This document shows positions 11,921 through 45,990 of a stretch of DNA of 64,000 nt, in pieces. Each line of letters starts with the position of its first letter. Position 1 is the first letter of the stretch. Source of the DNA: Marsupella aquatica. Taxonomy: Eukaryota > Plantae > Marchantiophyta. The position numbers and the translations under genes are program-made. The notes below the pieces were generated by a model. It made no database searches. It saw only the letters and a program-made list of their open reading frames with translations, and had not been told where the DNA came from. The stretch covers positions 4,176,510-4,240,509 of the forward strand of contig OZ316892.1 of NCBI GenBank assembly GCA_973895155.1, written 5' to 3'.

Positions 11921-12009
11921 ACTCCTGAATAAAGATTGTATCACTTTTGTATTAATCTCTTTGACTTTTTGCTTGAATTATAAGTTTGCAATGCACAACC
12001 ATGTTTGGC

Positions 12010-17500: not shown

Positions 17501-18230
17501 CATAGTATTGGGCACCAGCCTGGGATCTACCACTACTACCACCTTGCCAACCTTGATCAGAGGTCAGCCCCCCCTGCTGGTATGGTGCATGCACAGGCTT
17601 CGAAGGCAAAACAGAACTGGCAGGACGCTGCATCACATCACCAACTACAATGTCAGGAACTAAGCAAGGTACATATGTGTAGTACTGAACATATGAAACC
17701 TCTAAACAAGAGTTTTTAACTCAAAACCTTGTTGGGAAAACTACTTACATGTTTCTTTTGGGGCTGCTCTGCAATGTATTCATCTTCATAACCCCCATCC
17801 TCATCCATTTCCTCTGGAAAATACTCATCATCTGCATCTTCTTGTCTAGTGTCTGCACTCACCTGTGCAGCATCAATGTCATCTCCACATTCTGCCATTG
17901 TAGGTACGACCTTCTTGCTCAACCTGTCACTCCGACGCACAGGCCCAGAGATAGTGCTGGTCACCCTTCTTGCGTACTCCTTTTGTTTCTTTGAAAATGC
18001 TGTGGCTCTGCGACATTCCAATATGAGAATACAGTCACAATTTCAGTGCCACATTGAACTATTCATGTCACACAAACTCAGCGGAGGGGTGTAGTTGAGA
18101 ATCGTTCCCTTACAATTCAGCCACATCCTTTTCCAGATCCAGTTCTGCAATTTTGGCTTTCACGTATGCTCGTTGTTCCATAGCTTTCCTTTCATACTCA
18201 CACATCTCTGTGTCACTCTGTTCCATCCTA
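14520..18230 (-). CDS. Second CACTA-2 gene (TnpA-like, multi-exon, DUF8039-like C-terminus); exon model approximate
   Basis: Minus-strand ORF pieces: CEYERKAMEQR N-terminus, ERWRMHKAW…VWARLVAYF…KSSQMTEAR (Transposase_24-like), FHGKRIPPGYSVV…TLGDAAGSLVLWP. Confidence 0.7.
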
Positions 18231-18334
18231 CTGGACCACAAAAACATGTCATCTATGGTCACCCCGTATAACACAATGCAACCACAATCACCAGGCATCC
18301 ATCCATACATCTGTGTTGCTTCATAATTACTTTA

Positions 18335-21300
18335 TTACACATCCTTCCCCTCACTAATGTCCATGCAAACAATTCACATTACTCATGGCACAGGCACACT
18401 GTTGGCATCTGCATCTCTGAATTCGCCTCCTTCAGCAAATGCATCTACCCTTGTCACAGGAATGAAGTCCCCGCTATCATGAACTACAGGCACTTGGTCT
18501 GAACGCCGACGATCAAAGGCACTATGAGAGTGTAAATGAAACTCAAGGTTTGATCCTTCCATCCGACGTTGCCTGGCCTATTTATGACACACTACACGCC
18601 AACCCGGGGAGTCTTCCACATCCAGGAAGAAAGCTTGCTCCACCTGACTAGGAAACACAAATGGCTCAGACCATTCGGGCAATTTCCCTCTGAAATTGGC
18701 CAGCAAGAAACCGTCGTTGTCTCTCTTCATGGTAGCCCTATTTCAAGCCAATCCTACCGCACCCATGAACCTTTCATAAGAATCACAGGACTGGACACCG
18801 CCCCATAGTCCAGAGCCCATATGTCAACTAATTCTCCCACATATCCCATCTCCATCCAGGCCCTGTCGTGATTGTGGCTCTGTTGCTCAAATACAGTGAT
18901 TAGCCCACAGTCATTCGTCACCCTGTAGGCACTGTCACCATCCTTCACTCGGAAGTGATTCCCATATGCTCTCATCCGTTTGTAAGTCTTCACTTTCAGG
19001 CTAGGGGCATTAGATAGTAGGTAAACATCTGCATCCATGTCTGGGTGGGTCTCGTGATGCTCTCTAATTGCCACTCTGATCCACTCCATGAAACCTGGAA
19101 AAGTTGTTCCTGCAGTGGGATGGGCCGCCTTCAATGACTCATACTCCCTGAACGAACAACCACATAGCATTAGCTTGGGTAAACATGAACAGGCTGAAGG
19201 AGAAAACCACACGAACACAACATTTAAGCTCATGAACTGGATTATAGCACATGTATGCACTCACTGTATCCAGGGTTCCATCACCACAGTGTTGTGCAAT
19301 ACAAAGTCATGTGCCAAGTCTCTCATAGATATGGTCAGGTTCTTTGTGGTTGCAGCCCCTTCCAGTACTTCACCTATCACCCCTTCCTCCTCATCAGAAT
19401 TCCACACCCTGGTCTTCACATGCTCATATTGTGCTATGTATTCGGTCAGAAATCCCAGAGTCTCATCCTTGATGTAACCTTTAGCCATGCTTGCTTCAGG
19501 TTTGTAATATGTTCTCACGTGACCTTTGAGTAGCTTCATGTACCGTTCCAAAGGGTACAACCAACGAGCACTCAAAGGCCTAAATTGGTGTAGCTCTTCC
19601 ACAACATGGACAAGTAGGTGGATCATGACATCAAAAAATGCGGGAGGAAAATAAATCTCCAGGTCACACAGCACCTGAGCGACATCTTCTGTCAGTTGTG
19701 GGAAGTGTGTTTCATCCCAAACCTTCACACAAATACGACGAAACACATCACTGAGTCGCAGGATCACAGTACGAACAGGCTTTTGCAACAGGCCCCTGAG
19801 GCATAAAGGCAACACCTGTTGCATCAACATATGGTAGTCATGGCTTTTCATACTACCAAGCTTTCTAGTCATGATATGCTTCTTGAAAGCACTGCCATAG
19901 TTTGAAGGAACCTTCAAAGAACTCAACCTCTGCACAAATAGTTCCCACTCTATGTCTGTCAGAACATAGGGCGCTTGGTACTTCAAGAGCACATCAACTC
20001 TGTGGGCATGTGGCCTCAACCAAAGATGGGGTTTCATTCCCCTCTGTTCAAGATCCAATCTCACTGAACCAGTGTCTTTCTCTCCACACAAGAATTTGAG
20101 TAGACTCTCACAAATATTCTTTTCAATGTGCATAACATCAATGTTATGTTTGCTTGGCTCAAACTCCTGCATCGTTGCAATGCAAAAGCGTCAGGAAATG
20201 CCTCAAGTTTAGTCTCTCTCTTCGAAATGAATGCACATGCTCTGAACCAAAACATGTATCCCAATTAGCATCAACTCCAAGAGGCTTACCCTCCAGTACT
20301 TGAGCTCCAAGTCCAATATGCTCAGTCTTTTTACACCATATTGCTTTATTGGATCACTCACTCCATCTTCCCTGCCCCCTCGTTTGATATAGTCATCCCT
20401 CAGTGCTCCCCACTGCCTGATCTCCTCTTTGGTCACTCGTGCCGGGGGTCCACGTTGCTCAATCTCATTGCCAAAGTGTGCAATCAGTGCCTGTCTTTCT
20501 CTGTAAGGGTGATCTGCCTTCAGAAAACGACGATGGCCCATGTATATCACTTTCTGCAGGGCTCTGGAGTACTCACTGGTGACATTGCGCCCACAGATAG
20601 TACAAGCACAATATCCTTTTGTTGTTTGGCCTGATATCATCCCATGGGCTGGGTAGTCAGCTATAGTCAGAATGACAATGGCTCTAAGGATGAATGGGTT
20701 TAACCTCCCAAGCCTCTGTAGGACATCATATGTGAGAACTCCTTCCTCCCAAAGCTTTCTCAATTCCTCCACTAGGGGAGCCAGAAACACATCTATGTTG
20801 GCAGATACAGCACTGTCTGGCCCTGGTATCAGTAGGACCATCAGAACAAAAAATCGCTTTGTAGTCATCCAAGGAGGAAGGTTATAATTCAAAATAGTTA
20901 CAGGCCAGCACGAAAATTTGTTGTTCTTGTCTCCAAATGGGTTTACCCCATCCAATGACAGCCCAAGTCTGACATTCCTCGGCTCAGCAGCAAATTCGGG
21001 ATACATCTCATCTATGAGTTTCCATTGCCTTGAATCTGCAGCATGTCGTTGTAGCCCATCATCACTTTTCTTGTCAGTTGCCCAAGTCATCATCTCCGAG
21101 ATGGCATGGCTTCTGAACATCCGCTGAAGTCTGGGAATGAGTGGAAAATGACGAAGTACCTTGGAGGGAACCATAGACTTTCCTGAGTTCCGATACCTAT
21201 GCTTCCCACACTTAGGGCATGTCAACGATTCTTTATACTCCTTTCTGAAAAGAACATGCCCATCAGGACAGGCATGGATCGAATCATAGTTCAATCCAAG

Positions 21301-22113
21301 ATTAGATATGCATCTTTTTGCCTCGTACATGTTCTTGGGCAAAATATTACCATCTGGTAGCACAGTTGTTCGCAAGAATGCCAACAACTCAGAAACCAAA
21401 ACGTTGGGGACATTGTGGTTGCCGCAAATGTTCAGGAACATGATGACAAATCCCAGTTTAGAACATTTGCTACCGGGGTACAAAGACTTCCTGCCTTCCT
21501 ATATTTGCAGGGGAGAGCCAAACATCCCATCATGCCCAGGGGTTTCCTGCCCTATCTCAAACTCATCAAGAGGCTCTTCGACAGGGGGCACACTTGCATC
21601 TGCAGCCGTATCCTCTTCGTTGTCCAACCCATCATGAAATGCATCCAAGTCTTGGAAGATGTCTCTCACCATCTCTTCCACATGAATTCCTTCGTCACGT
21701 GGTGCTGCCTGAGCACCATCCCATTGGAGAGCTGACAACCCACAAAGACCAGCTACAACATTTTCAAATGCACCAGGCAGAACCTCACTTGCCCGTCTTG
21801 CAGCATTGGCAGCATCAAATTCTAACCTCCACTCCTCATCGGAAGAATCTTCCTCTGCAGGATCATTCCAAACTCGATGTCGTGGATCTCTTCCATGAAC
21901 CGCGATATGCCGCCAAACCTCATTCAGACCCCTGGTACGGGATCCTTGGTAGATTGCACAAGGACATCTCATCCTACTGGCTCCTGAAAGTCTGGTTCGT
22001 AACCTTTCACGCTGCCAAAGCTTATTATCATGGCGTGATATCCTTGTGGGATGATGCAAAGGCAATGCCTGTGCCCTGGGCTGGGTCTGGGGAGGGTGGT
22101 GACCAGGGTGCAT
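18335..22113 (-). pseudogene. CACTA TnpD/Tnp2 transposase of CACTA-2, disrupted
   Basis: RCPCA…HIAVHG, RNVRLGLSLDGVNPF, NYNLPPW, ADYPAHG, IDVMHIEKN, MKSHDYH, FFDVMIHLLVH, WLYPLERYM; in-frame stops at 21499 and 18754; introns near 20170-20290 and 19148-19262. Confidence 0.94.
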
Positions 22114-23160
22114 TGTAACAGGCTGGGAGCTCTGCAGTCATGGACAGCAGTGAACAAGGATGCCTAATGGTGGTATTTGTGTTCCATATATCCCTGACTG
22201 TATCTGCCAAAAGAGTTAACATAAGGTGTACTAAATTCTCACAAACCCTAAACCACCCCAAAAGAAAAAAACAGGTTTGCAAGTAGTGTACCTATTGTCA
22301 AGTGAATGACACAAAATTCCTAAATGTTGGAGAGTGTCACCACCTCCTCCGCTGTCCTCAAATGTACCGCCTCTGCATGTACGTTTACAGTGACACCCCC
22401 AGGCAGCAGGAAACAACAATCCGCCAACAGTAAAATAAGCCCAACTGCCACCAACCATAACAAGGTACATTAGTTCAAAGATCACATTTATTTCAATGAT
22501 CTGATTTATACAAAAAAACTTGTGTCCAAACTGATGCTACTACTCCTCACTCTGATTCAGAATCGCTAATGACCCATTCCTCACTTGTTGTCTCATAGTC
22601 CTCTCTGTAAGGATCCTGACCCTTCCGTGGCCAGGCCTCAAAAAGATCATAGTCCATTGGGTTTTGACGCTTCCCAGCTGCTACTGATTCCACAAGCCAA
22701 GCATATGAAACCACAAACACATTATGGGACATGACATAAAAGCGAATGTCTCCCTTCCCAAACTTGCGGCAGGCTTTGGGATATGACTTAGTAATGACAT
22801 GAGTGGTGTCCTCTGTTATATTCTCCTCCACTGTCCCACCTAGGTCAAGCACTGTGGACTTGTACACTTTGCACTTAACCTCTCCAATTCCCGCCTCCAC
22901 AAATACCATGCTCAGCCCTTTCAGAATGGGGGTTGGTTGCTTCATCTCCTCAGCCAACATACTCTTCAGCCTTGTAGAGCTCTGTCCTTTGTTGAGTACA
23001 GGTCCATATTGGAGATCAGCAAGCCGTGCCTTTGCTTCCCAGACTTCTTGTTCAGCCCAAGCTGATGCAGTAGCTTCTTCATCCTCCCACAACTCATATT
23101 GCTCATATCCTGTACAATCTTATGTGCTATGGAATCTGTGATCCAAGAGGCCTCAACTAC

Positions 23161-26100
23161 TGTGGTGCGTCCCATGGCTCCCTAAACCCAAGAAACCCCC
23201 CAGCTCAAGCCGATTCCCGCAGGTTTCGTGCTTGGCGAGGCCGTTTCCGCGGCTTAGCAGCATGGGACGCTGCTAACCTTCTACTACTACTATTAACATT
23301 TTACACACATATACTGGACAGATCCTTCATCGGGTCATGAGATACGTAGCCGGCCTAATATAGGCCTTCCCCTGTCTTCCCCTGTCTTCCCCTCCGTCTT
23401 GTTAGGTATGTTTGGATTCCGCCGCCGGAATGATCCCCAATAGGCTTGGTTAAGCCGCTAAGACCTCTCTCAGCTCGACACATCCAACTCTCACTCCCCT
23501 GCTTACTTTCCTTCCTTCTGTTGATGTGGGCACTCTTCACACAAGTTAATGCGACACACAAATAGCAAAATGACTCATTCTGACTGAGTCATACCATGCA
23601 CTTGCCATACAAACAGTACATCTCATACACAAGTTCTGCGAACTAAGCCGTGAGGCCAACTCTATTCAGCTCTTAGGCATGAGGAAACATGAATATACAC
23701 AAGGGTCACTGTATGACTAACCGAGAGCTTCTCGTACTACTTGATCCCAGCCCGGCTGGTGCAAACTAAAAACTTGCTAAAGAAGAGGCCCTGAGCTCCC
23801 CGCTGCCCAGGTACTTATCCTGGTAGTGGATCCGCCATTCTTTGCATCGTAAGCCTAATCTACTTAACAGTAATCTACTTGCCCGAATCTACCTATGTAC
23901 AGCAAGGCAGGAGCACAAGTGTTGCTCCTACCAGTGGGACCGCAATCCCACTAAGCTAAGTGTCAGGGCCGCTCCTGGTTCTGATCCTAATCCTAAACGT
24001 GGAGATCCGCGCCCGCCCTGCCCACTCACGCCTCCTCCCTCCACGTCCGCCCTCCCTAAAAGGAACGGCGCCCTTGCACCGTCACGACACCGGTGGTGGA
24101 TCCTTAATGGACGCCCCCAACGCTTCCTCCTCAGCCATTGCCGTAGGTTCATTCTCTGACAGATTACCTGCCCTTGACTGAGTCAACTCTCCATCGGCCT
24201 GACTGGGTCCACCTTCGGCTTCAGCCTCGACACCGGCCTCGGCAATACCCACGGCTTCGGCCTCAGCCACTCCCACGGCTTCGGCCTCCCCTTCCCCTAG
24301 GGTAGTTGGATCCTTAGCCGTGACCCTGTCTGGGGTCGGTGCTGGGTCTACCTCCTTGATCACCACGGCCTGTGAAGTCGTATTACTCCTTGACCCTGAA
24401 GGTTTCCGCTTCTTCTTCGTTGGTGGCTCGGCAGCTGGTCCCTTCCCCTTCCCACTTACTTCCGGCACTGGTGCAGGTGGCGCGGCTTGTCCTTCGGCAA
24501 TTACCACCCCTGGTAACTGGTTTGTCCCAACGGGAGATGGACCTGCTGCAGCTAAGCATTTAAATACTGCGGCTTGTTTCTTCAGCCGCTCTGTTTGGTT
24601 GTCGGCCCGCCGCTGTAGGTTCTCCATCTTCCTCGTGATTTCCTCCAACTCCTCTTGGGTTTCATCCAGGTCCTTACGTGCCCCCTCCAGCTCGTTTTTG
24701 GCCTCCTCCTGCTCCCTGTGGAAAAAGGGTCCTACCTCCAACTCCTCTCCAAAGATGCCGAGCGCAAGTTCCCCACACATCTCACCATACTCCATGGCTC
24801 TATTCTTAGCGTAGGTGGAGTAAGTAGAAGTGATCGGCATCGCCCATCGTGGCCTCTGCTCCCAAGCCGTCCTGCGGATCTCTTCAATCGTGGCTAGAGG
24901 TTTGCTTCCTTTTTCGGCTAGCCGCCTGATGTCCTCCGGCCAATCTCCTCCTGGTAAATCCTTTTCCTTAGCCATGGCGGCCTCCTCCTCCTGCTTGATT
25001 CGCTCCTGAAATTCCTGCACCGTCTGTTTTATGCCGTCGAAGCTCGGGGGAGCAACATCTGGTGGGGGAGACTCAGGGCTACTCTGCTGGTTGGGGTCCC
25101 CTCGCACTACCCTTCGAAGTGTGGGGACAAACCGGCCACAGGTCCTTACTCCTGGAACGTGATGGTCCGACCCATAGCCGGAATTATCATGGCTGCAGTC
25201 CTCCACTGCCTCCTCTACCTCTTGGACGTCCGGCTTCTCCCTCTCCTCTTCGTCGGTAGGAGCTTCAGGCAATTCTGCCTCAGATTCGGAGCTTGAGGTT
25301 CCCACGTACATTCGAACACCTGGCTTGGATTCCGGCCTGATTCTCTCCTTGTCTCCAGCAAAGGGGTTTTCTCTTGTGAGCCGGTGTAGGCCTACCTCTG
25401 TAGTAGTGTCCTGCATTATTGCCGTTGCCGTTGTTGTTGCCGATGCCAATTTCTTTTCTTTCTCCAGTAGTTTCAGCAGACTCTGCATGCCTGGTTGGTG
25501 CATCGGCAAGTCTTCCTTCCTGGGCCTAAACACCTGCTCGATCGTAGGACTAACAGGTGGTTGAGGCTTCTCAGCCAACGGCCTCGGCGTTGGAGCTTCC
25601 TCGGGTGCCCTTACCTGCAGGGGAAGTACCGGGGCAAAAGTCTGACCTCTGGCATACCGGCACAACAGCGGCATGTGATAGCCAAGCCGCGACACGCTCC
25701 CCATGCCGATTACCTGCTGCTCCTCCTTTAAGATCTTCTTCAATTGGTTGAGGAGGTACCCGTTGTAGTCCCGGCTTGGGTCTGGCCTTTCTACCAGATA
25801 GACCTGTGCCTTCCCGATCTCTGTCCTCGGCAAGTTACAATGCATGGTCACCCGCAAGAAGTCGATCATCTCTCCTATGTGCGGGTTGGTGCAGGTGTTC
25901 CGGAAGAAGCCATTCTTCGTTGATGGCCCGGGGAACGATCGGAACTCCTTGTCAGGCAGGGTCTTCCTGGTATCAACTTTGGTCTTATTGCCTATCGGCA
26001 AGCCAAACACTTCGGCAATTACCTTGGGAGTAAGATAGAAATCCTTCCCATATATCCTCGTGCAATTGGTCTCGGGTTCCCATGACCCCACGAATTCTAA

Positions 26101-27163
26101 TAGGTCTAACTCCGGTACCTCCGGCTTCAGCCATGGTAATCTTACAAAGGCCTCCAAGCCGGATCCGGCCATGAAGCCTTGGTACTTCTTGGTCTACATG
26201 GCCGTAAAGCATGCATCCTCCTCCCGTGCAAAATGTAGTTGCACCTCCACCGGTAGGGTTGCCGCCCAGCCCTTCCAGGTGTCATCCCTGGTTGGAATGG
26301 CCTTGATGGGATCGACCTCCTCCTCTTCGGCTTCTCCCTGCCTCCTGCTCTGCTGCTCGGCTGGCCTCTTTGGTGCCGCCGACCTCGTTCTTTTTGCCGG
26401 GGTGGCTTCATCGTTGACGGCCCCCTTCCTCTTCATCTCTGCTGCCATGGAGGTTTCTCCTAGCACCGTTGCCTGGGTCCACCTTTCCGTGCTACCCTTT
26501 AATTCCCAGTGTATGTCGTTGCAGTTCTTGATGGCCTCTCAGATGCCGACGACGCTGTCTTTGCAAAACAGAAGATCGTCGAGTTGATTGGAAGTAGGCG
26601 TCCACAGGAACTCGTCCTTGATGAGTTCGCCTCCTAAGAAAGCCGTCTTCTGCAGCTCCCACAATCGAGCGAGCTCCTGCCGTTCTCGAGCTGCCCTTTC
26701 TGACTCCTCGTCCTCGTAAGTCTTGATGTACTCAGTTGCCCGTTCGAACAGGCATCCCCAGAAATGTGCCGCTTGATTGACGTTGCTCATACCCTCCTTA
26801 GGTCGATCGTCGGTATCTATTCTCTCCCCGAGTGCTTGCCTAAGCAGCTGACAGTAGTTGGCCTCCCGTAGTCGTCTGCCTAGTTCGTGCTCGCAAATGA
26901 GCCACCATCTCCTGCAAGCGCTCCTTACCCCTCTCCTCTGCCGGTCCTTCTTCCCGTTGATCCTTCCTAGCCGCCGACGCTTAACGCGCCCTAACCCTAA
27001 TCGGGTTTTCACCCTCAGCCTTACCTCCGGCCTCTGCCCGGGTTCCATGGTTGCCCCTAATTGTTTATATTTTCCTTGTTTTGTCCCTATACTAAGGTGT
27101 TCCTAGGGTGCCTTCCTGCTTTACCCACTTAACCGGCCGAGTGATTCCTGTCTAGGCATCACA
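23161..27163 (-). mobile_element. 4,003-bp TG…CA insertion with 5-bp TSD (solo-LTR-like), containing one long reading frame
   Basis: Ends TGTGGTGC…GCATCACA; TSD ACTAC (23156-23160 and 27164-27168); removal restores the BRCT frame; no terminal direct repeats seen. Confidence 0.9.
24082..27048 (-). pseudogene. About 988-codon reading frame (retrotransposon accessory-ORF-like domain plus coiled coil) with two in-frame stops
   Basis: ORFs 26539-27048, 26194-26466 and 24082-26172 share one frame, separated by TGA (26539-41) and TAG (26194-6). GLEAFVRLPW…LTPKVIAEVFGLP resembles GLDFLIKLPW…WTLKVIAKVYRTP in 37491-38333. Confidence 0.75.
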
Positions 27164-28030
27164 ACTACTTTTAGGCCTTGCTTAGTAATTGCAGAATTCA
27201 TGTAGGACCATGACCACTTCTTTATCACTGATAGCCATGTCCCTGCAACAACATGTGTAGTCTCTGGAGTGATGTCCTGAACTACAGTGCCATGGAGCTC
27301 AGAGAATCGTTTCTATACAGTTGGCCAATGCACTTTGGTCAACCCATGCTGGCCATGGACCAAAATCGCTCTGACCCCTATAAACCTCGCTGTAAACACT
27401 GCTGGGTGGTCACACTTTCTACGTTTACCAGGCTCCATGTACACACACCCTACGTGATGACAGTGAATTTTGGAAGAATGGGTTCACCTGACAATACAAG
27501 GATAACAAAATTCCTGCTTTTTGAGTTGATCTGGCCCACTGGTGCTCAGGTACGATTTTGATAGGTACAAGGGATATGTGAACAATACGTACTAGGCACC
27601 TGCACGGATGCAGGACATTGTTTGAATATATACTACAAAATCCATATCCATGGTGAAATGAAGTGCAACCAACTTGTCATGGCACATACATATTTTGTTG
27701 TAAAGGAGGATACATTCAATGACAAACTTATAGGGCAATTTGATTAATTGCATGCCTGATAATTTATACGCTTACAACTTAGAAGTCCTGTTTTAATTTA
27801 GCAGTCTGATGAAAGTGTTTATGAAAATGACCACTCAGCCTAAATACTTCCAAGAAGGCTTGTAAGGATAAGTTTGTATAGGCATGTACCCAGCCACTGA
27901 CGCCAGAGCACAAGATAAGTGCTGCCTATATAAACTCGCCTACCCAACTCCTTTTCAAAATTGGAATCTCTGCAATCTCAAAAAATAGTACATCCACATC
28001 AGGTGCACTGTGCATGTATAATGTTCAGCT

Positions 28031-28711
28031 TCACAGCCAAGATATGTGATCTCTCACAGGAGTGCGCGAGGTAGGATCAATGGCATGGCGATGACAATAA
28101 AATATCCATCGATCAACACCATGTGCAGAGTGATCATAGATTTCTCTATCACAAGCATAACCCTCTGCTTGATGATCTTTCAGGCAATGATAGTGCCACA
28201 TAGTGGGACACCTAGCATAGTGGACTATGTCAGTCCAGTAGTCATCATCATGCTCACCACATGCCTTGCACCTATGAAGTGGGCAAGCTGTGGCATGAGC
28301 AGGCAAACACTCAAAACAGAAAAATCTCACACAAAAACGGTCTGGACATTTCCTAACATTTGCTGTAGCATCAACAGAGCCCTCATAGGACCCCAACTTC
28401 CCACACTGTGCACACTTAGCCTGCTTCTCCAAACAATCAGTGCACATCCAGTCTCCCTGGTGTGTTGACGGGAGGCCCACCCCTGGACAGTTGTTTTCTG
28501 CAGCAAGGTCAGACTCCGGGTTGAGGTGGAAATGCCTCATGCAAGGGCCCTCACAAATGACCAGGCCCCCACCATCATCACAAATGGCACAACAATGAGC
28601 TGCCTTCTGGAAAATCTGACTTGCAGAGAAGTTAGTAGCATCTGCCCCAAGTACACCTGTGTTTCTCACCTCTGTCACACGCTTTTTGGCTTGAATTTTA
28701 GGCCGTGCCAT
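28031..28711 (-). CDS. EDM2-like composite PHD-finger protein (226 aa) carried by CACTA-2
   Basis: CAICDDGG..VICEGPCMRHFH…WMCTDC..KQAKCAQCGKLGS…CPLHRCKAC…FYCHRHAID….TPVRDHI follows the plant EDM2 PHD region as I recall it; open ORF. Confidence 0.85.
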   Translation of the reverse strand: MARPKIQAKKRVTEVRNTGVLGADATNFSASQIFQKAAHCCAICDDGGGLVICEGPCMRHFHLNPESDLAAENNCPGVGLPSTHQGDWMCTDCLEKQAKCAQCGKLGSYEGSVDATANVRKCPDRFCVRFFCFECLPAHATACPLHRCKACGEHDDDYWTDIVHYARCPTMWHYHCLKDHQAEGYACDREIYDHSAHGVDRWIFYCHRHAIDPTSRTPVRDHISWL

Positions 28712-28722
28712 GCCTGCGCATG

Positions 28723-28938
28723 AGATAGACTCTACAATTTAGCAGACTGCACAGAAAGTAAAATATATTTAGCATTTAAGGTACAAAGGCATTTAGATAG
28801 ACTCTACAATTTAGCAGACTGCACAGAAAGTAAAATATATTTAGCATTTAAGGTACAAAGGCATTTAGATAGACTCTACAATTTAGCAGACTGCACAGAA
28901 AGTAAAATATATTTAGCATTTAAGGTACAAAGGCATTT
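28723..28938. repeat. Three exact 72-bp tandem repeats just upstream of the PHD ORF
   Basis: AGATAGACTCTAC… starts at 28723, 28795 and 28867. Confidence 0.95.
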
Positions 28939-29553
28939 GCTACTGCAATGAATTGGAATGGCCACACAAGGATGCAGAGCACACATACTTTTGGTATGTT
29001 GAGCCCACACACAAAACTGATCCCCTAATACAATTTCTCCACCAACACCTCAATTTTAATTGTGGCTATGATTCACCAAAGGAGATCTGCAACAACATTT
29101 CATGCATTTGAATCACATACAATAGTCGTGACATGTAAATCAGGCATTCTTCGAAGAGGATTGGTATGAAGCAGTGTCATAAGGGTTGAAATTTATACAT
29201 CCTAAATAGGTTATGATAGTGGCTGAGACAAATAAGTGAGGCATAAATCATTTTGCATATTATCACATGGCCCATTAATTCATTCAACGTTGCAATGTTC
29301 ACCAGGTTAAAGCAGTCATGAAAGCAGTCTTTCAATAGAGACTTTTATGCGAGTTTGCTAGCCTCTTAAATTAGGATATTTTGCTTAGTGCAGGCATAAT
29401 AGGATATAAGTTATGTACTGTTGACCCTAAACCCTGGACCCAAAATTGCTCATACATCAAAATTTTAAGTAAATATCCTCTGTGTTGAAGTCAGAGTGTT
29501 AAGCTATAGGTCAATGGTATCTGGTCTGTGCATGCGGTGTGACAAGTGGTCCT

Positions 29554-30003
29554 CTAGAGCATGTGATCCAAACATGTGTAGACACCAAAGTCACCGGTGG
29601 TGGGGTCTGGGAGGGCAGGACAAGTGACATCACCAGGCACACTGCAGGATGGCGAGTGGTTCCAGATGATACATTGTGCTCTGTGCAAAAATCGGCATCC
29701 AAGAGAACGGTCATCCAATTCTGGGCCAGAAGCCCTACAGGCAGGACAATCATATTGGCAACTGTGTACACACCCTTGGCACCTAATTTGTGGCGGGTCA
29801 TGTACAAGAGACACAAATACCAAGGATGTCGGGAAGGGTACTGAAGCAGGTAGAGGCCGGCTGTAGTTGTTCCTGGAAACAACAGGGTACTCAAAGTACC
29901 ATGCAGACTGGGCTGGAAGGATCCCAAGTCTGACATACTCAAGGCGCAACATCTCTGCCTTGCGTGCAAGTCGCACATGTTCAGCGTTGCGGGTCCTCAC
30001 CAT
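29554..30003 (-). CDS. Cys/His-rich protein of unknown function (149 aa)
   Basis: ATG-initiated open ORF, co-oriented with the other cargo; CxxC…CxxC…CxxxxHxxC…CxxH pattern. Confidence 0.5.
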   Translation of the reverse strand: MVRTRNAEHVRLARKAEMLRLEYVRLGILPAQSAWYFEYPVVSRNNYSRPLPASVPFPTSLVFVSLVHDPPQIRCQGCVHSCQYDCPACRASGPELDDRSLGCRFLHRAQCIIWNHSPSCSVPGDVTCPALPDPTTGDFGVYTCLDHML

Positions 30004-31011
30004 AAGTGTTGCTTTCGTTGTGATGTCCTCTGTTCACGTCCTTTGATGAGCAAGGTGAGCAGGAGGTCGACTTGCCTCGCCAACAGCAACCACCTAAACT
30101 AATCAGTTCCCACTCATTGTCTTGGTTCCAACTACAGGTCATAGTATACACATAGCATGAAACGTGCATAGTACATATTTGATTCTGAGTTTATGAGTTT
30201 CCTAAGACAAAGAGCTTGGTGATAAACCCATATTCTCGACGGACATGTATATCAATCATATTAAATTCCTGTTTTTTCATCCAGAAAGACCGAAAGTCTC
30301 ACCTTGCAGGTTGCAGCAGAGAGAAAATTCACTGGTTGTCGTGTTGTGCAAGTGAACCTCCACTGATGCCCCGGTGTAGCCCCTCAGATGCAGGTGACAC
30401 TTACCAACTCCCAAGTTGCCTGGTCTAACAGAAAATGCTTATATCTTCATAACTTTATAGAGCAAGTACATGATCACATACTTCTGGATCTATTCATATT
30501 TGGAACTCTTGCCAACTACAACTCCCATTATGCACAAGCTCACATCAACAGAGAAAGATACAGAATGCATACTTACTATGGCTCTAAGCACCTTCACTAC
30601 CTTGTTGAACCCAGTCCTGAAGTCTTTTCAGCGTGTTTGTTGTGCTGTCTCCTTTGGCACCCAACACCTTAGTCCTTGATGTAACAGAATGCGATTTTAC
30701 AAGTTAGATGCTTTGGAACCTTCTATGGTCTTAGCTGAATTGATGTCATCGTAAGTGGTGAAAGACAAGGAAGACGAAAGCTGGTTGAAGAGCTGTGGAC
30801 AACACACTAGCATGAAGTGCTTCAACCAATCCACTGCCAAACGGAACTCTTACACAGTCACATTCTTTCAATAAACAGAAACTCAGTCAAACTTCATAAT
30901 CAAAGTACAGACTCTGAAGGACCAAAGGAGGATGTTGTGAGTTTCTCTGTTGTTTAATGTGTTACCCTTCTAGTTTCGAAGTTAGCAAATGCTGAATAAT
31001 GTGTCTACCAG

Positions 31012-31350
31012 ATCTTCGAAAAGAAGCCCACCACAATTAAGAACTTCGGTATCTGGGTGAGGTATCAAAGTTGTACAGGTTATCCCAACATGTACAAGAA
31101 ATATCGTGATACCACATTAAACAACCACACAGCAGATGTATGATGAGATGGCTTCTTGTCATAGAGTTCGGTTCCCTGCATCCAGATCATCAAGACTACA
31201 ACAGTCCCTGTCTCTCTGTGCAAGCGAGAAAGTACCAAGCAGTTCCATGATTCAAAGATCAAGTTCCCCTTGACGTACCGCAAGATTCAACCTCCATCGC
31301 GAAAGCTAAAGACGACTTACAAGGCCACCAAGCCCAACACATTTGTTTGA
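31012..31350 (+). pseudogene. RPL18A: Captured last exon of 60S ribosomal protein L18a (eL20), two frameshifts
   Basis: After a CAG acceptor: [84 protein letters not shown]…[15 protein letters not shown]. Confidence 0.93.
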
Positions 31351-34300
31351 GTAGTGCGGGTGCAGGTTCCCAATTTTGAAACAATTTGGCTCATTTTATG
31401 TCCCGAGGGACTCCAGGAGTTTATGTATTGAGTTTCTAGGTCAAGATGCTTAATATAAGGAAATTCAATTATCACTTCGTTCCCAACTTCTATTAATTGA
31501 ATATACACAAGCTGGAAGCAAGAAGACAAGCCACAATCTAGCATCTTAGCCAAACACAATCGTCCCGACAAAGCAAAACTCAGCTAGACAGAAGTCACTC
31601 GGATCCACAGAAAATTGAAGATTCACCTCCAAGCCGGAGGCCGATCACTTCAGTACAGCAGCTTCTGGATGGAAGAAACTCTGCTCAGCCCCACAGAAAC
31701 ACAAATGTTAAGGCTCCAAGTCAGAGCTCACAAACAGAAACTCAGATAAATAACATTCAAAATCTGTCCAGGTTTGTGCAAAGTGTACATATTCATTCTT
31801 CTGGAATGAACACGCAATCCATAAGAACGAAATTAGGAAGGCAAGCGCACAGGCCACCGAGAAAAGTAAAGGATGCATGTGTTAGTGGGGAGGGATCTTA
31901 GCAAAAACAGGGGAAAGCAAGGGAACTTGTTGCTAAAATCAGCTGAACGATTGCACGGTTCCTATAAATTTAGTGGACCTTAAGGCCGTCTGTTCACCCC
32001 CCCACCCCACCGCCAGAGCACGGGGCACAAGGCATGTTCTGATACAGGGAGGAGCGAAACAGTCATGTCAAGCAAGAAGTGTGGAGAGACCAATCAGTAA
32101 GCAAAAATAGGGGAGAACATACATACATCAGCAACAGCAGGAAACAAGAAAGATGATTTCGGGTGGCATCTTAGGGTCGGGGACACCACTGCAACACCGG
32201 GACTTAGGATATGACTAAATGTAAGCTACATAGTCCTCCGTTCTCTTCAACAATTACCTTAAACAGTGAAGTAATCTAAATGGATGTTGATCAAAATCAA
32301 TTGCAACTACGCGGCCCTTGGTTCTGCTGCGGCTACAGCAGCCAAGAGAACAGCTCAGAGCCTTGATTGAAGACTGTGCTCTCAAACTAAGCTAAAGACA
32401 AAGAGATATAGAGAGAGACAAAAAAAAGTTGACAGGAGTGCAAAGCGAGAACCCACTCCCGTTCTTTCAACACCCTAAACCCCGCTGCCTGACTTAAGTT
32501 GCATGGCGACAGAAGCAGTCATTGAAAACTTACCTTGTGATGACAAAAACGCTCTGGGATGGGCTGCTACTCCCAGGACTATCCCACACTCTTAGCGCCC
32601 CGTTGCTATTGAGCCACACTTCAGTTCAGCCGCGCACGCTCAATCTTTGTCATTCAGCTAAGTTCAGCTCCGCAGGGCCTGGACTCACTCTCATCCAATT
32701 TCAGTTGATCAGTATTGCAGCTCTCTGCTCCCAAGAACAGGTCCTTGCGTTTGTTGAGCGCCTCTATAGACTCACTTACCTCCAAAAACACTGAAAGTTT
32801 TTATCTGCATTACAATGAGCTCTAAAGACCAAAAACATTCCCGCCTAAACTGAAATAGAGTCCGCAACTACAAGCTTTGCAGCTCAACTCTCTGAGCTCT
32901 CCCAGCTCAAAGGTATCAGCATGTTGTACCCACACTTGATCGAACGCTCTTCCAATGCTCGCTAGGTTGATCTTCCAATGCTCACGGTAAGCTATGGACA
33001 CCAAGCTCAGAAGACCGTGGGGAGACAACTAAACTTGCAGCAACGTAGGACCGCAAAGATAGGGATTGCAGCTTTACCTGGGGCGATGCAGCACCAAGCC
33101 GTGCTGCGTAGCAATCCGTAGCAAGAATAGTCCAAATGCAAGCCAAGTGACAAGCTCCTGGTTCTCGATCCCAAGTTGCAACTGAATATCGAATTCACTC
33201 TCCTAGCTTCAAGGAATGAGTATCTATTGAATGTTGAATTAAATTCTCGCAAACTCTTCACAGTGCTTCCCGTAGTGCCTATTGTCGATGCAACACACAA
33301 TCACTCTTGATGCCTACTACTCACATTCCCTTTTCTCAATGCAACACACACTCGCTCTTCTTGCCTCCTACTACTCACATTGCCCAACGATCAACGAAAG
33401 TAGAAGGACAGGACAGGGAGAACCCTTTCGCAGCTCAGGACGGCAAGGCTAGGAGTGTATACACATCGGGCCGCAATAAGGTCCAACCTCAACTTCAAAA
33501 AGTGCAACGCCAAAACTGGAAGCCGGGTCCAATAACAGTCGTTAGTAGCTAGGATGTTGTAAAACCCCTAAAGTTGCAGCATTGCCATACTCTACTTCCT
33601 CACCCGGTAGCGCTAGGCATTCAACCTCTCTCTTCCAAAGACCTCGATGACCTCCCACCAGCTCAATGACGATGGCACGCAAAGCTTCCGTTTGGCTTGC
33701 AAACCCTTGAGGCAAACCAACTCCCTTGGAGACCCTTCCCAAAACCCTGTGCGAGAGAGAAATGCCGAACGTGAAGACCACTCACTTGTCTTCCCATTGA
33801 AGTGGAGACATTAGTTCACAAAAGAGACACAAAAGTCTATGATTTGCCTAATTTGTTTTTTCCTTTGAAACCAAAGGACTTACGCAATAGTTATATGTGG
33901 GGTGAGTGGTTAGTCACAACTTTGAACCACCCCCTTTGGTGAAAATGTGGCCAAATATTCAGGTATGACCCCACATTACCATTATGAAGTACACTTTTTT
34001 AGGGTTGGGGTAGTGAAGAGCTGATCATATATATTTAAGTTGGACATTTAAGTTGGACTTATATTGAACATGAAGCATGCATTGGTTGTCATATATGAAG
34101 GGGGCCGGGGAAACATGGTGGTTTCTGGGGCATGGCAATAAGTAAACCCAACCTACATATGTGAGGCTGAAATTGGGTGATAATTAAGCACGCCTTTGGC
34201 ACGACCAGAAGACGTCGATAGAAAAATTAGAGATTGACTACAAAAAGCATTAAGTTAGGTTAGCAAGCTTTGACAAATCCTTTTTGCAGTTGAATGGGGC

Positions 34301-34725
34301 TGGGGCGCGCTTCATGGTGTCTAGATGGGGGTAGGAATAATGATGGAATACTCAGTAATGGCATGGTTTAAAATGGTATGACCAAACTAGAATTAAATCT
34401 ATGTGGAATGACATATGGTGTATCCAAAATCATATGTATTGGGTTAGATCTCATACTTTAAGGTTGAAGGGCTCAAATGTTGTGCTCTCATAAGTTGTAC
34501 TCTAATGTAGAGTCGCTTGTATGACTTCAACCTAATTGCCTTAACTGAGTTATAGTTACAACTTCCCTAAAAGTTGTAAACATGACTCCTCAAAACTTCA
34601 CCAAAACTCAGTCAAGAAGGTGTGACTAACATGACACCAATAACCTTGGAGTCGTTGTTTCATGAAGGTCTCGGACAAGTCACATTCTTTGTGGTCTCAG
34701 AAAGGGTGGGTTTCTTCTAGTGATA

Positions 34726-35188
34726 GATCGGAGTTGCGTATCGCCGAAGTTCTATCCATGTTGACGGAATTTTAGTGAGTATCATTGTATCGGTCACCAG
34801 AAAGCTACTTTGGTGTTGGTGAGCATTTATCCTTTTTGTTTATATTTTCATGGTGATGGAGAAGAGCAATTGAGGCAAGATTTGTTGCAATCTTGTTAAC
34901 ATGATAAGACCAGAATCCTTTTTGAAGGAGTGGCAGTGGAGATTCAATCCATTGGACTTTGGTTCTAAAAGCTTTTCCATAATCCATGACTTGGGAATTA
35001 ATCTTTTCTGTTCATTTTGTTAGTTTATCCATTTGTTTCTCTTTTGTCTGAAGATTTGGTTGAGTGATACTCTTAAGTCTTCAAAATAGTTACAATCATT
35101 CAATCCATTCCTATTTTGTTCTTAAAGGGATCGAAACCTTGGTCTTTAAGTGAAAAGTGTCACTTTTGATTCTTCCGGCTATACCACA
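34726..35188 (+). repeat. 5' LTR, right part
   Basis: Matches the 3' LTR through …GGCTATACCACA. Confidence 0.96.
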
Positions 35189-35194
35189 TCTTTT

Positions 35195-35212
35195 TGGTGC
35201 CGCTGCCGGGGA
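35195..35212 (+). promoter_or_regulatory. Primer-binding site (Athila-like, tRNA-Asp type)
   Basis: TGGTGCCGCTGCCGGGGA begins 7 nt after the LTR end. Confidence 0.85.
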
Positions 35213-35586
35213 ACGGATGAAGGAAGGAGGTTGATGTTCAGGCAGTGAATGCTGAAAAAATTGAAGAGATGAGAAATTGAAATTCTAGGGAGAAGTTTTG
35301 ATTTGTGAAGAGAGAAGTGTAATATAGAGTTGAAGGGAATTGTATTGGCTTCAAGGAGGCTTATTTGATTTGGAGAATTGAGAGAAGAAGCATATGCAAT
35401 CATGTCTACGTCAGAAAGTGGGAAGGATTTTAGGTTTGAGAAAAATCCATATACCTTAGAGAACGCCCCAAGATTATTGGTGGGCATGCTAAGGAAATTG
35501 GTTGAGCCTAATGTCACCAACGGAAAGAGGCAGATTCAGGGAGCGTCAGCACAAAAGAGATTGGAGGATTTCAAAGAACCAGGGAA

Positions 35587-35934
35587 GTGTCCGGCCAAAT
35601 TCCAATAAGCAATCATCAATTCTTTAAGATGGAAGAGGAATTTGAATTTGAAGTGGTAATTGGGGGAATTGTATTGTCCAATGTAGTTATGGATAAAGGA
35701 TCCCAAAACAATTTGATGACCACTGAAATTGCTGACAGAGTGGGTATTAGGCAACTGCTACCCACTCCTGAAAGACTGAGAATCAATAATGGAGAGATAA
35801 TTAGACCCGAGGGGCTTGTAAGAAATGTTCGAACCCAAATAGGTGATGAGACATTTGAACTAGATTTCTTAATTGTGGATTCCCAGATTTTTTCCCTTCC
35901 CTCAATTTTGTTAAATAGCACCTGGATACATTAG
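35587..35934 (+). pseudogene. Retrotransposon aspartic-protease-like remnant
   Basis: VVMDKGSQNNLM…IRPEGLVRNVRTQIG..FELDFLIVD; the catalytic D(T/S)G reads DKG. Confidence 0.7.
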
Positions 35935-36576
35935 GGTTTGCAGTAAGATCAAAACAATCAATTTTGTTTTGGAAAATTCCACCAGTCAGGGCACACCTCG
36001 CCTCCTCCTTAAGCTCAAAACCCATGAATTTACATATTGATTTCTCAAGTTTTGAATCCTTAGGGATCCTAATGACCTAATGGGCGGCATAATTCCAAAT
36101 CTGAAATTGACTGTTTAAAATGAAGTTAGACAAAGAAATAGAAGAAGGTAGAGGAGTAAAATTATTGATTAATTAAGTAAATTGTACAGTAACGTCAAGC
36201 TAGATTTAGGATAGAGATGACTGTGAAGGACGCCACGAAGAGGCGTCCCAAGGATGAAGGACGCCACGCGAATGCGTCCCAAGGAAATGTTGAGTTGCTA
36301 AGGAGGGTGCTTTAATCGGGAGCAAGCAAAAGGTGCGTGCTTGAAGACATAAAAAGGTGCGTGCTTGAAGATATAAAAGGGTGCCACCCCTTGTTTAGAA
36401 TTGGAGAGGTGCAACTGTTCTGATTGAGCACCGCCACCTTTCCAAGCTGGAGGATCTGAAAGGGAGAACTTGAACAGGCACCGCCGATAGAGTCCGTTGA
36501 GATCTGGTGTGATGGAAGGTAACCATCATTTAGCCTACTTGCCTTCTATTTGTGCAACCAAATTTGGGAGTAAGGC

Positions 36577-37470
36577 ATGTCGCAGGACGAACAAGCAATC
36601 GCCAAGAGAGTGAGCAAAACATCCGGGAGACCTGAAACTTCGAGGAAGGCAGTCGAGCCTCGAACGTTGCTTCCTGAGTTTCAAACACCTGGAGCACCTG
36701 TACCTGGAAGCGTGTGGAAGCAAGTGAAATCCATCCAAGAGGGAGTTTCAAGCGGCTCTGTGGAGCAGCCCACAACATCTAGACCTTTGTTCGTCAACCT
36801 TTGGTCAGGCCCAAAGTTGATTGGATCACATAAGTCACGGAAGGGCTCAAAGACTGTCCGTGCCTTAAGGCAATCCGATCAATTAGAAGAAGGTGAATCT
36901 GTTATCTCAAAAGGAATTCCTGATTCACCAAAGAACTTAATTGGGATACCACTTGAAGGAGAGAATCCTGACATTTTCTCACATTCCGATGGTGCGAATC
37001 CCTTGAGTGAAATAGGGAGTTCATCTTCTAGCGAGAAGAGCAGTAGCTCAGGAAATAGCAGTCATTCCAGCAGCTCGAGTTGTGTGAGTCCTCAAATTAC
37101 TACCAATCCTTTTGCTAAGCCTTTCACACTTCCTGTTGCTACTCGTTCAGCCCTCCCTGTTATTTCTATTTTTCCTACACCAACCATGGCTCGAAACAAT
37201 GTGAGATATGATAGGTTCTTTGGCGTTCAAAGGAGGATGCAGAAGTGTATCTCAAGGAATTTGAAGCTGCGGCAGCATCCAATGGACAAAGCCAGGATGC
37301 TGAGAAGGCCAACTTGTTTGGAGGCTTGATGAAGAAAGGTGCTCAAAAATGGTACAACCGTTTCCCTGACAAGCAGGATTATTTGGGGAAAATTGAAGGC
37401 TGCTTTCCTATCCAAATACAAAGAAGGAGCTGCTGCTTGAGCTTTCAACATGGCGATGGCGGCTGAGGAA
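36577..37470 (+). pseudogene. Gag-like remnant, frameshifted
   Basis: YDRFFG…AEVYLKEFEAAA…NLFGGLMKKGAQKWY resembles a retrotransposon Gag N-terminal region. Confidence 0.55.
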
Positions 37471-37490
37471 GGCACGCACCTCGGCTGACA

Positions 37491-39232
37491 TTGCGGGCTG
37501 ATGAGTGGAGCGTTTGGACTGATTCAAGTTGGAAAGGGAGTGCAAGGACCAGACAAAGAAGTGGAGTGCAGAAATTGGAAGCAATCTCAAGTGTTTGGCA
37601 AAGGACGGCCAGTGAAGTGGACCTGTTTTGTGGAGTCATGACAGAGAAATATACAACTCGGGCTCCTCGACCAGAATACCCTCAAACAAAGGAAGGTATG
37701 AAACGCCTAACGGAGAACCTGGCTAAGATGGGCCTCGACTTCTTGATTAAGTTGCCATGGTCGATTCTCGATGGTTCACTACTTGAGCAGAGCACTTTTC
37801 GAACCAAGAAGCAGAAGCGTAATGAGGGCATTCGAGCCAATCCAGAAGCTTGGACATTAAAAGTGATTGCCAAAGTTTATAGGACACCAAAGAAAGAGAA
37901 AGGATTGCTGGATGGAGAGACCGAGCATCGTGGTTATGTGGAGAGCAAGTTTCAGCCCCAATCGTGGCAGAGAAGGAGCGGATGGATGATCGTGCATTGT
38001 TTGGACCTCCTTGACCTGACTCCTGTTTTTGCATTTCTGATCCCTATTCTGAAACCTGAGAAGCAAACCAGGATTTCTCTAGCCTTGGCTACCACCATTG
38101 TTGTTTCTCTAGAAGGCAAGGAGCAGATCAATTGGTCCCAGATTCTATTTGATGTCATTCATACTCAGGTGCAGAATCATATTTCTCGGATGGCTCAGAA
38201 GATTATCAAATTTTCTTATCTTCCTTCTTACATTGCTCATATCTATTGGAGTGAGAAATGTCTGAATGATGAAGAGAAGATTAAGTTGGAATTCTTATTT
38301 CCTTCGACTGAAAAACCGAAGCTCAAGAAGTGAAAGCTACCTAAGCCAGCATCAAACGAACCTGGTTCTTCTCAAGCTTCACCCTCAGATTCGACTCTTC
38401 TTGATCAGATTTGTGACATTTGAATTGCACTAGACTGAATGTGGTTGATGCTGTGACTGAATTAAGACGAGATTTGGACATCGTCGCTGGACGCCATACA
38501 GAAGCAGAACCGGTTGACGAGGACCAGGATCTATCCGAGAAGGAGACATTTGATGTTGATGCTGACTCAGAAGAGATTCCTGTCAATTCATCTCCACCCG
38601 CAACTTGTAGTCCTTCCGCATCGGTTCCTGCTGAAGAAATACCACCAGAAGTCGAGCCTACTCCAGTTGCACCAATACCTATAGCTCCTGCTTTTGTTCA
38701 TACTTCACCTCTAGAGTCAGTACCACCTCAGATTTTCAAGTTGCATCAATGGAGTCCAGCAGAATGGAATTATCGATTCAGTGAGTTAGTGAATCAAGCT
38801 GCCTTCAGCAGAAGACAAATTTTGCCACCTGTTTCCCCACCAGTTATTCATGGTCGTCAACAGAGCTTCTGTGCTACTTACACTTGTCCAAATCTGCTTT
38901 TGCCCATTGATATGCTCAGATCCTGCCGACTGGAGTCTATTGAGATGTGGAACTGGGTTTACCATTGTCGCAGAGTTTATGCCCCTTTTCCACCACCTCA
39001 TCCAGATTTTAAGTGGCCATTTGCTTACTTTACATCGGTAGGCCCTGACAGAGTAATCATTAGAAAACAGAAGGATGACACTTTAGTGGAATTCCGAGGT
39101 AAACTCAAGAAGATTATGGCTATTAAAGGCAAGACCTCCAAGGGAAGGCAACAGATTCAATGGATAGCTCAGTTACCTTCTATCAAGGTTACCCCACCTT
39201 TGTTAGATACCGGTTTTGGAGTTGGACTTTGA
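37491..39232 (+). CDS. LTR-element accessory ORFs (280 aa and 270 aa), function unknown
   Basis: Two open ORFs before the PPT; the first resembles the accessory domain in 24082-26172. Confidence 0.5.
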
Positions 39233-39388
39233 TCCTTCGATGATGTCAACAAGCGCCCATTTTTAGTTCTGATTTATTTATGTGAGATACCAAATCAGCA
39301 TCCTTCTTTTTGTGTCAATTTTGTGAAGACTTTATGAAGACATTTGAAGTTCATCTGAATTATGGCTTGTGAGGGCACGGCGCCATTT

Positions 39389-39401
39389 GAGGAGAGGGCT
39401 A
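39389..39401 (+). promoter_or_regulatory. Polypurine tract
   Basis: GAGGAGAGGGCTA lies directly before the 3' LTR. Confidence 0.8.
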
Positions 39402-40535
39402 TGTGACACCTGAATTTTTTGCAAAATCAATGGAAGATGGAAATAAGATGCAAAGTTCACGAATTAATTGCATTTTGGTACCCAAATGCCCAACTTTACC
39501 TTGCTGACAATACTTATGAAGGACGCTTCTGAGAGGTGTCCCATGGAGACCAAACTTATGAAGGACGATACTCGGCGGAAGTTCGAAGACAGATTTTTGT
39601 TACCCATTTACCCTAGTTATTTAGTGATCTTTTTCTACCTTAGTTTAGTACTCAATTTTTATTACTTTTTTTTTAAGTTTTGAAAAGGCATGACTTTTCA
39701 TTTCCCCTTTTTATGCTCCACTTAGACCTATAAGATTATTGTTTTCCTTTTTGTTTTTTTTAGTGAAGCTTGTATTCAGTATTGCAAACTTTTGCAAGTT
39801 TCCCTCCTTCCTTTGTAATCATTGCTTTTGAGAATGATTTATGAATGAAGTAAAACACTTCCTTTGTGATGTAATGAATTTATTTCAAAAGATTCCTGTT
39901 GGTGCTTGAGTTTTCATTACATATTTCCAAGATCAGATGAATTCAAATTAGGATTGCTTGTGGGTCAAGAATTGCTAAGAATTCAATGATAAATGTGGAT
40001 AAAAAGGAGCAAGATTCTGATTTCAGAATAGTTAGTACCGTTACCCTTACTTTGGCATACCCACTAGTGATAGATCGGAGTTGCGTATCGCCAAAGTTCT
40101 ATCCATGTTGACGGCATTTTAGTGAGTATCATTGTATCGGTCACCAGAAAGCTACTTTGGTGTTGGTGAGCATTTATCCTTTTTGTTTATATTTTCATGG
40201 TGATGGAGAAGAGCAATTGAGGCGAGATTTGTTGCAATCTTGTTAACACGATAAGACCAGAATCCTTTTTGAAGGAGTGGCAGTGGAGATTCAATCCATT
40301 GGACTTTGGTTCTAAAAGCTTTTCCATAATCCATGACTTGGGAATTAATCTTTTCTGTTCATTTTGTTAGTTTATCCATTTGTTTCTCTTTTGTCTGAAG
40401 ATTTGGTTGAGTGATACTCTTAAGTCTTCAAAATAGTTACAATCATTCAATCCATTCCTATTTTGTTCTTAAAGGGATCGAAACCTTGGTCTTTAAGTGA
40501 AAAGTGTCACTTTTGATTCTTCCGGCTATACCACA
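39402..40535 (+). repeat. 3' LTR (1,134 bp)
   Basis: TGTGACACC…ATACCACA; about 8 substitutions plus poly-T differences versus the reconstructed 5' LTR (counted by eye). Confidence 0.97.
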
Positions 40536-45928: not shown

Positions 45929-45990
45929 GGTGACGGTGTGCTGACCAAGTGCACCACTCGACTTGGGGAGCAGCGGGGGGGGGGGAGGGG

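Follow-up and report, generated by a model that had tools for sequence, protein, structure and literature searches.

Why should a DNA transposon carry, as a separate gene, the chromatin-reading cassette of a host protein, and what might such a gene do for the element? The question is raised by an open reading frame of the liverwort Marsupella aquatica, located in a 64,000-nucleotide stretch of contig OZ316892.1 (hereafter the window). The preliminary description, made from the DNA letters, had called it an EDM2-type PHD reader carried in a CACTA element, and its 226-residue product is here termed mini-EDM2.

The surroundings of the ORF are those of a complete CACTA element inserted into the 5' LTR of a retroelement (Table 1). 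The element ends in 11-bp perfect terminal inverted repeats (TIRs; CACTAGAAGAA) that begin with CACTA; CAC(TA)..(TA)GTG termini with short TIRs are the mark of CACTA/EnSpm elements in the accessible text of PMC12730594. A 3-bp duplication, ATA, flanks both ends, and the uninterrupted 3' LTR of the surrounding retroelement aligns across the insertion site. Together with the TnpD- and TnpA-type domains, these termini bear out the CACTA context claimed for the ORF and place the element in the CACTA/EnSpm superfamily; the mini-EDM2 ORF is separate from the transposase and is not fused to it. The two LTRs of the interrupted retroelement differ by 11 mismatches and one gap in ~1,134 bp (~99% identical), and because they are so nearly identical the CACTA insertion is judged to be recent. 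Among the ORFs scanned in this young retroelement, an aspartic protease was matched weakly and a reverse transcriptase not at all; the retroelement is apparently non-autonomous. Elsewhere in the window lie a LINE (43694-49212, plus strand) with a long open ORF1 (DUF4283) and an ORF2 (endonuclease and reverse transcriptase), a Helitron-like stretch (8158-12492) with a Pif1 helicase fragment (11181-11786), inverted repeats rich in TTGCGA and a 19-bp tandem array, and an inverted repeat (74-722) that is MITE-like or a foldback, with 244-bp arms, 98% complementary and 19 bp apart.

Table 1. The CACTA element, its genes and its insertion site, in coordinates of the window
Feature	Position	Strand	Remarks
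LTR retroelement interrupted by the CACTA element	12995..40536	+	CACTA in its 5' LTR (12995-13664 + 34726-35189); 3' LTR 39402-40536
Target duplication and TIR	13662..13675	.	ATA 13662-13664; 11-bp TIR 13665-13675
Complete CACTA element	13665..34722	-	21,058 bp; minus strand for every recognised gene
TnpA-like exon (Transposase_24)	16025..16672	-	E 1.5e-4, below curated cut-off
Transposase, C-terminal part (DUF4218)	19261..20190	-	E 4e-26
TnpD-type transposase, N-terminal part (Transpos_assoc, weak; Transposase_21)	20209..22137	-	Transposase_21 E 7e-71
Second cargo gene, 3' part (end of first BRCT, second BRCT)	22547..23160	-	BRCT E 9.9e-8
Nested LTR-type insert interrupting the BRCT gene	23161..27163	-	4,003 bp; TG..CA ends; 5-bp duplication
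Second cargo gene, 5' part (start of first BRCT)	27164..27438	-	BRCT E 0.0053
Mini-EDM2 ORF	28031..28711	-	226 aa, own ATG
Mini-EDM2 layout (residues)			Basic N-terminal motif; PHD1 41-93; shortened PHD2 100-146; PHD3 148-209; EDM2-type C-terminal motif
72-bp unit in three identical copies, immediately upstream of the mini-EDM2 ATG	28723..28938	.	Acceptor-like site in each copy
Cys/His-rich ORF upstream of the PHD gene	29554..30003	-	149 aa
TIR and target duplication	34712..34725	.	11-bp TIR 34712-34722; ATA 34723-34725

All of the features first listed for the ORF were reproduced, i.e., its position and minus-strand orientation, its own ATG, the basic N-terminus, the HYARCP motif (residues 164-169) and a stop codon two residues past TPVRDHI. 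The statement that the gene is intron-free and stands alone holds in that the frame is open in the DNA; it requires the qualification that its basis is DNA and that sequences resembling splice acceptors are present 2 and 35 nt upstream of the ATG. One contig of sequencing run X5 omits 157 bp within the 72-bp repeat region, and the triplication is possibly a recent expansion in the window copy or an assembly artefact.

Three NSD-type PHD models of Pfam match the ORF at values that all fall below the curated cut-offs (PF23011, E 4.6e-5; PF22908, E 0.006; PF23004, E 0.0047), and no VANC-related Pfam match was found for it. A profile of six sequences (the ORF and five relatives) reaches human NSD2 at E 1.2e-10 and, at E ~1e-30, proteins named as host EDM2s, which are its best long matches by source names. 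Searched against 1.84 billion representatives, the profile yielded 546 proteins at E <=0.001, 150 of them among the matches listed. The C-terminal YCxxH...TPxRDHI motif is present in nine of nine aligned plant hosts and in the family of the ORF, and in neither of two NSD-type outgroup rows; for this reason the cassette is termed EDM2-type rather than generically NSD-like, and this part of the preliminary description stands on both the profile matches and the motif. Of 24 predicted zinc ligands, 23 are present in the window copy, one of them as Cys in place of His. EDM2 itself is described as having an RFD, acidic tracts, a methyltransferase-like ELP domain and a tail rich in proline (PMC7529245, accessible text); all of these are absent from the ORF, the frame of which ends right past the cassette. 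An AlphaFold model of the protein is middling (mean pLDDT 69, pTM 0.66). Foldseek with this model gave two matches at E <=0.001, both PZP domains with TM ~0.2, and a VIA structure search gave as its best match the PHDvC5HCH of NSD2, with a weak score (Z 4.2, rmsd 2.8, 75 residues); searches of the PDB returned no EDM2 structure. The model and fold searches are consistent with fingers that are PHD-like, and with nothing beyond that.

Mini-EDM2 is not alone. At least 26 short relatives were found, with 33-85% identity among those aligned. Ten were looked up; all come from Logan, JGI or ENA contigs, none comes from an annotated proteome, and none bears a name beyond "hypothetical protein". The longest contigs for these ten are ~1-13 kb. 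By eye, about ten of the 26 appear truncated or frameshifted, some perhaps at contig ends. The 14 relatives examined at their C-termini stop 1-9 residues beyond the RDHI-type motif. In a quick tree of 69 rows, 18 of 18 family rows form one clade (SH-aLRT 92) outside the host clade. A careful tree (LG+G4) of a 34-row subset of that set, with the frameshifted relatives and most angiosperm matches left out, unites 12 of 12 family rows (100/98) and places them outside a 17-row clade of host EDM2s (87/92), with its base unresolved. The comparison with host EDM2 and NSD-type PHDs that had been proposed thus returns the short relatives as one supported clade outside the sampled host EDM2s. A further 226-residue stand-alone PHD cassette from JGI (P0153) sits on a long branch beside the family and lacks the His-to-Cys swap described below.

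Identity falls to 33% inside the family; for comparison, Marchantia and legume EDM2 are 50% identical, and the window protein is 32-36% identical to hosts over the cassette. A recent, host-like capture without protein-level conservation, of the Pack-CACTA type, is not what these values and the fixed ends of the ORF describe. A recent neutral capture confined to this copy would have counted against the preliminary interpretation; the relatives, their conserved clade and the multicopy state in sequencing runs (below) speak otherwise. The conserved clade and the related contigs in several runs support mini-EDM2 as a maintained cargo gene, and the family is a real and conserved one, apparently undescribed as yet. 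CACTA linkage was seen for the window element only, and the distant relatives are known without genomic context. For these, context scans of metagenomes with the family alignment gave 0 of 205 stretches, a metagenome scan with P0156 gave one of 153 (a 19-residue match judged unrelated), and a scan of viral contigs gave 0 of 111. A word-index search for longer relatives gave 0 of 318 candidates, a blank that is uninformative because host EDM2s surfaced by profile search only.

The fingers have been both kept and remodelled. Each of the 24 predicted zinc-ligand positions is Cys or His in all, or all but one or two, of the relatives. Two derived traits mark PHD2: Cys in all 14 relatives where each of 11 non-family rows has His, and a loop deletion common to the family. 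Ahead of PHD1, an acidic residue within five positions is found in 0 of 20 family members as against 23 of the 23 other rows shown. An acidic residue ahead of a PHD finger commonly reads H3K4. Because this residue has been lost, the specificity of mini-EDM2 has probably shifted from that of EDM2; and since PHD2 is remodelled as well, H3K9me2 binding is not simply transferable from Arabidopsis EDM2.

The N-terminus carries a second conserved feature. Of 24 family members, 16 have the pattern [AST]RxKxx[AS] within their first 30 residues, as against 0 of 155 other matches (shuffled controls: mean 0.3, maximum 4 of 24), counts that are to be read with the pattern having been picked post hoc and the sequences being kin. 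A MARxK start is found in seven of the 24 and in three of the 155. Conservation of the motif supports the ATG of the ORF as the true start. Its spacing, Ala-Arg-x-Lys-x-x-Ala-basic-basic, presumably recalls the tail of histone H3. That the N-terminus is an H3-tail mimic, baiting host H3K4/K9 readers and methyltransferases within a chromatin toolkit borne by an ancient plant CACTA lineage together with a tandem-BRCT phospho-reader, is an unlikely proposal on present grounds, and a plain localisation signal is possible because of the post hoc choice of pattern and the kinship of the sequences. If the mimicry were true, the transposon would encode a histone-mimic decoy and with it a route against silencing that differs from those of VANC and TET. 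Histone mimicry is documented in viral proteins (PMC11738798, accessible text); no case of a transposon doing so was found in the titles and abstract openings surveyed.

The window copy itself is not a good representative of its family. Residue 165, the expected Cys that was noted from the start as Tyr in HYARCP (codon 28217-28219), is occupied by Cys in all 13 relatives compared, and in each of three runs no less than 98.9% of the contig depth likewise encodes Cys; the Cys-encoding base at 28218 accounts for 5,876 of 5,894 in X1, 349,505 of 353,295 in X2 and 311 of 311 in X5, with no cover in X7. The observation therefore stands for this copy as the lesion of a single copy and not as a family trait, and Tyr165 as a family adaptation is rejected, since the relatives all have Cys. 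Other genes of the element are damaged as well: the transposase has an in-frame TAG (21499-21501), and the BRCT gene has both an in-frame TAG (27313-27315) and a frameshift near 23105, neither TAG being present in the covering contigs. Seven of the ten ORF differences listed change the residue (203 further rows cover the region), and eight of nine transitions examined lie within CG or CHG context, a bias as expected from methylation-driven decay. From its sequence, the window copy is decayed and would be a weak or dead allele.

Related sequence occurs in several sequencing runs. Parts of 27300-29300 are present in nine of the 11 runs listed, spanning seven studies and six organisms; five runs (three organisms) contain 45-66% of the words of this interval, and one run may share the source of the window. 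Contigs placed on 13400-33300 (6,134 in X1, 10,340 in X4, 1,290 in X5 and 269 in X8) fill all 30 bins for X1, X4 and X5, and 23 of the 30 for X8. Near-identical contigs of X1 reach similar depths over the transposase (1,554-1,782) and next to the PHD gene (1,641), depth here not being copy number, and among the contigs listed none bridges the two genes; for these reasons, linkage of PHD gene and transposase in the runs is an inference. When contig depths are summed, the PHD ORF and the interval 29336-29999 stand above their flanks, by a measure that cannot rank genes.

Between the PHD gene and the transposase sits a second cargo gene, which encodes tandem BRCT domains and is split by the nested insert. 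BRCT domains are commonly phosphopeptide readers. Contigs of runs X1 and X4 pass from one flank of the insert to the other, lacking it (joint 23153 to 27162). The insert, covered by very many contigs of the same two runs, has no internal LTR pair that could be found and contains a 703-residue ORF without a clear Pfam match; it may be either a long solo LTR or a retroelement that has undergone deletion. The 703-residue ORF was considered as a CACTA gene and rejected, being located within the insert. The Cys/His-rich ORF upstream of the PHD gene is a possible third cargo gene; no usable Pfam or Atlas match was found for it, and profile comparison to the mini-EDM2 family gave no match (probability 0.2).

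The likeliest donor, though not a proven one, is a liverwort paralogue of EDM2 that is itself truncated at its C-terminus, and sequence comparison would put its capture at one old event. The paralogue (Marchantia Mp1g03210, Riccia R1sor_003797, M. paleacea Mapa_015239, and Calypogeia CAM6087769 and CAM6107985; proteins P0013, P0016, P0018, P0024 and P0029 of the analysis) has 620-770 residues with a long N-terminal region and ends 3-47 residues beyond the motif; no description of it was found in the literature surveyed. Like the family, it has a non-Ser residue in the R-x-FH of PHD1. When 134 non-family matches were scored for the pre-PHD1 motif of the family, the two Calypogeia paralogues came top, at 13.7 and 13.6, as compared with 5.2 for the next and a median of -8.7. 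Unlike the family, the paralogue retains the His of PHD2 and the acidic residue ahead of PHD1. Constraining the tree to unite the family with the paralogue gave a likelihood 0.48 above the free tree (AU p 0.53), and two other forced placements gave AU p 0.19 and 0.17, with none rejected under LG+G4, a model prone to long-branch pull; the donor is graded as likely because these alternative placements also survive.

What the cassette does for its element is best considered through several mechanisms, of which one is tentatively preferred at something short of an even chance. By this account a plant CACTA family present in many copies carries the ORF as a cargo gene for the triple-PHD cassette alone, and its product would be a decoy without catalytic activity that binds chromatin and relaxes the silencing of the element. 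A single old capture of an EDM2-type cassette would have been followed by purifying selection on the captured protein. The protein is predicted to be made from its own ATG and to enter the nucleus, for which the basic N-terminal motif may provide a localisation signal, possibly doubling as a bait that resembles the H3 tail; to bind histone tails or nucleosomes with a specificity altered from that of EDM2; and to compete with host readers or writers, so that silencing of the element would be eased. The conserved clade of short relatives, their kept ligands and derived traits, the N-terminal motif, the contig cover of the element in several runs, the broken and unnamed relatives as in transposon copies, and precedents among transposable elements (TEs) are points that speak for a decoy. 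Against it are the neutral look of the window copy, given the seven residue-changing differences among the ten listed, and the difficulty that a sequence-blind reader, unlike VANC, offers no obvious way of singling out its own element. In a rival explanation the protein would recognise a state of chromatin and carry the transposase or the element ends to it, thereby directing insertion, with the BRCT protein as a link to break repair. Such targeting or tethering is the usual hypothesis for TE-captured readers (10.1101/2021.11.30.470311, accessible text), and it draws on the position of this CACTA in the LTR of another transposon and on the two BRCT domains of the second cargo gene. It is nonetheless held to be rather unlikely: mini-EDM2 is not fused to the transposase, whereas the published cases, in the text available, are fusions, and a single insertion site is uninformative on bias.

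The route first suggested for this ORF was that the ASI1-AIPP1-EDM2 complex is recruited or titrated, so that the element transcript escapes premature polyadenylation in heterochromatin. Its attraction lies in the binding of H3K9me2 by EDM2 PHDs and in promotion of distal poly(A) use by the complex (PMC7472560, PMC7529245, both as far as accessible), and in retention of the EDM2-specific C-terminal motif across the family. This appears distinctly unlikely for a protein that lacks every other EDM2 domain and the pre-PHD1 acidic residue (0 of 20, as against 23 of 23), whose likeliest donor already stops right past the cassette; moreover, no bryophyte report of the complex was found in the titles and abstract openings surveyed. 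A quite unlikely alternative is that the distant relatives are unremarkable small genes of the host, or are carried as cargo by various elements, with a single sub-family riding as a CACTA passenger. In its favour are the 26 relatives, all without genomic context, and the ~1-13 kb length of the longest contigs for the ten looked up; yet many relatives look broken, and none of the ten looked up comes from an annotated proteome, although the same search recovered host EDM2s of Marchantia, Riccia, Calypogeia, Selaginella and Ceratopteris. In its CpG depletion (o/e 0.23) the ORF also agrees with the remainder of the CACTA (0.23-0.36) and not with the nested insert (0.69). Least probable, and judged improbable outright, is a neutral or camouflage capture of the Pack-CACTA type, in which the protein would have no function. 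CACTA gene capture and camouflage are documented (PMC13317346, accessible text), and the window copy is indeed decaying, with its transitions concentrated in CG or CHG; however, an open frame, fixed start and stop, and ligand pattern persist at identities as low as 33%, and 32-36% protein identity to hosts leaves little camouflage at the level of DNA.

The decoy reading can be set beside systems already described. Arabidopsis EDM2 and plant EDM2-like proteins (AAE complex; PMC7529245, PMC7472560 and PMC9292364, as far as accessible) share with mini-EDM2 the triple atypical PHD cassette and the YCxxH...TPxRDHI motif; they are proteins of 800-1,600 residues with RFD, acidic, methyltransferase-like and proline-rich regions, all lacking from the 226 residues of mini-EDM2, which further differs in the His-to-Cys swap and deletion in PHD2, in the missing acidic residue before PHD1 and in being transposon-borne. 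NSD1/2/3 have a comparable PHD cassette, as the profile and the weak VIA match to NSD2 indicate, and differ in that mini-EDM2 has no SET or PWWP domain and that the two NSD-type outgroup rows are without its C-terminal motif. VANC of VANDAL Mutator elements is likewise a separate accessory ORF in a plant DNA transposon for which anti-silencing is proposed; it binds specific tandem DNA repeats and its activity has been shown (PMC10398659, accessible text), whereas mini-EDM2 derives from a host PHD cassette, sits in a CACTA and is no more than predicted to counter silencing. Separate counter-silencing cargo is thus represented by VANC and, by proposal, by the TET/JBP genes of fungal EnSpm elements (PMC12730594, accessible text); the latter encode enzymes, and mini-EDM2 is a free-standing reader beside a tandem-BRCT gene. 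Recruitment of host chromatin modules by transposons is otherwise known from Chromo/PHD fusions (10.1101/2021.11.30.470311) and the PHD of Rehavkus (PMC6446971), which in the available text of both reports are fusions to TE proteins, in contrast to the free-standing mini-EDM2. Literature outside subscription journals, Repbase Reports and bioRxiv supplements (including the fusion table of 10.1101/2021.11.30.470311) yielded no account of a CACTA element with an EDM2-type PHD gene.

Plant transposon proteins with a shown counter-silencing activity are few, with VANC as the main case. A PHD cassette of host origin, conserved and carried as a free-standing gene by CACTA elements, would add a route based on a chromatin reader. 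As a natural minimal EDM2 of 226 residues, the protein is easy to express and test, and it is in effect a natural deletion mutant from which it may be learned what the EDM2 cassette does without the other domains of the host protein.
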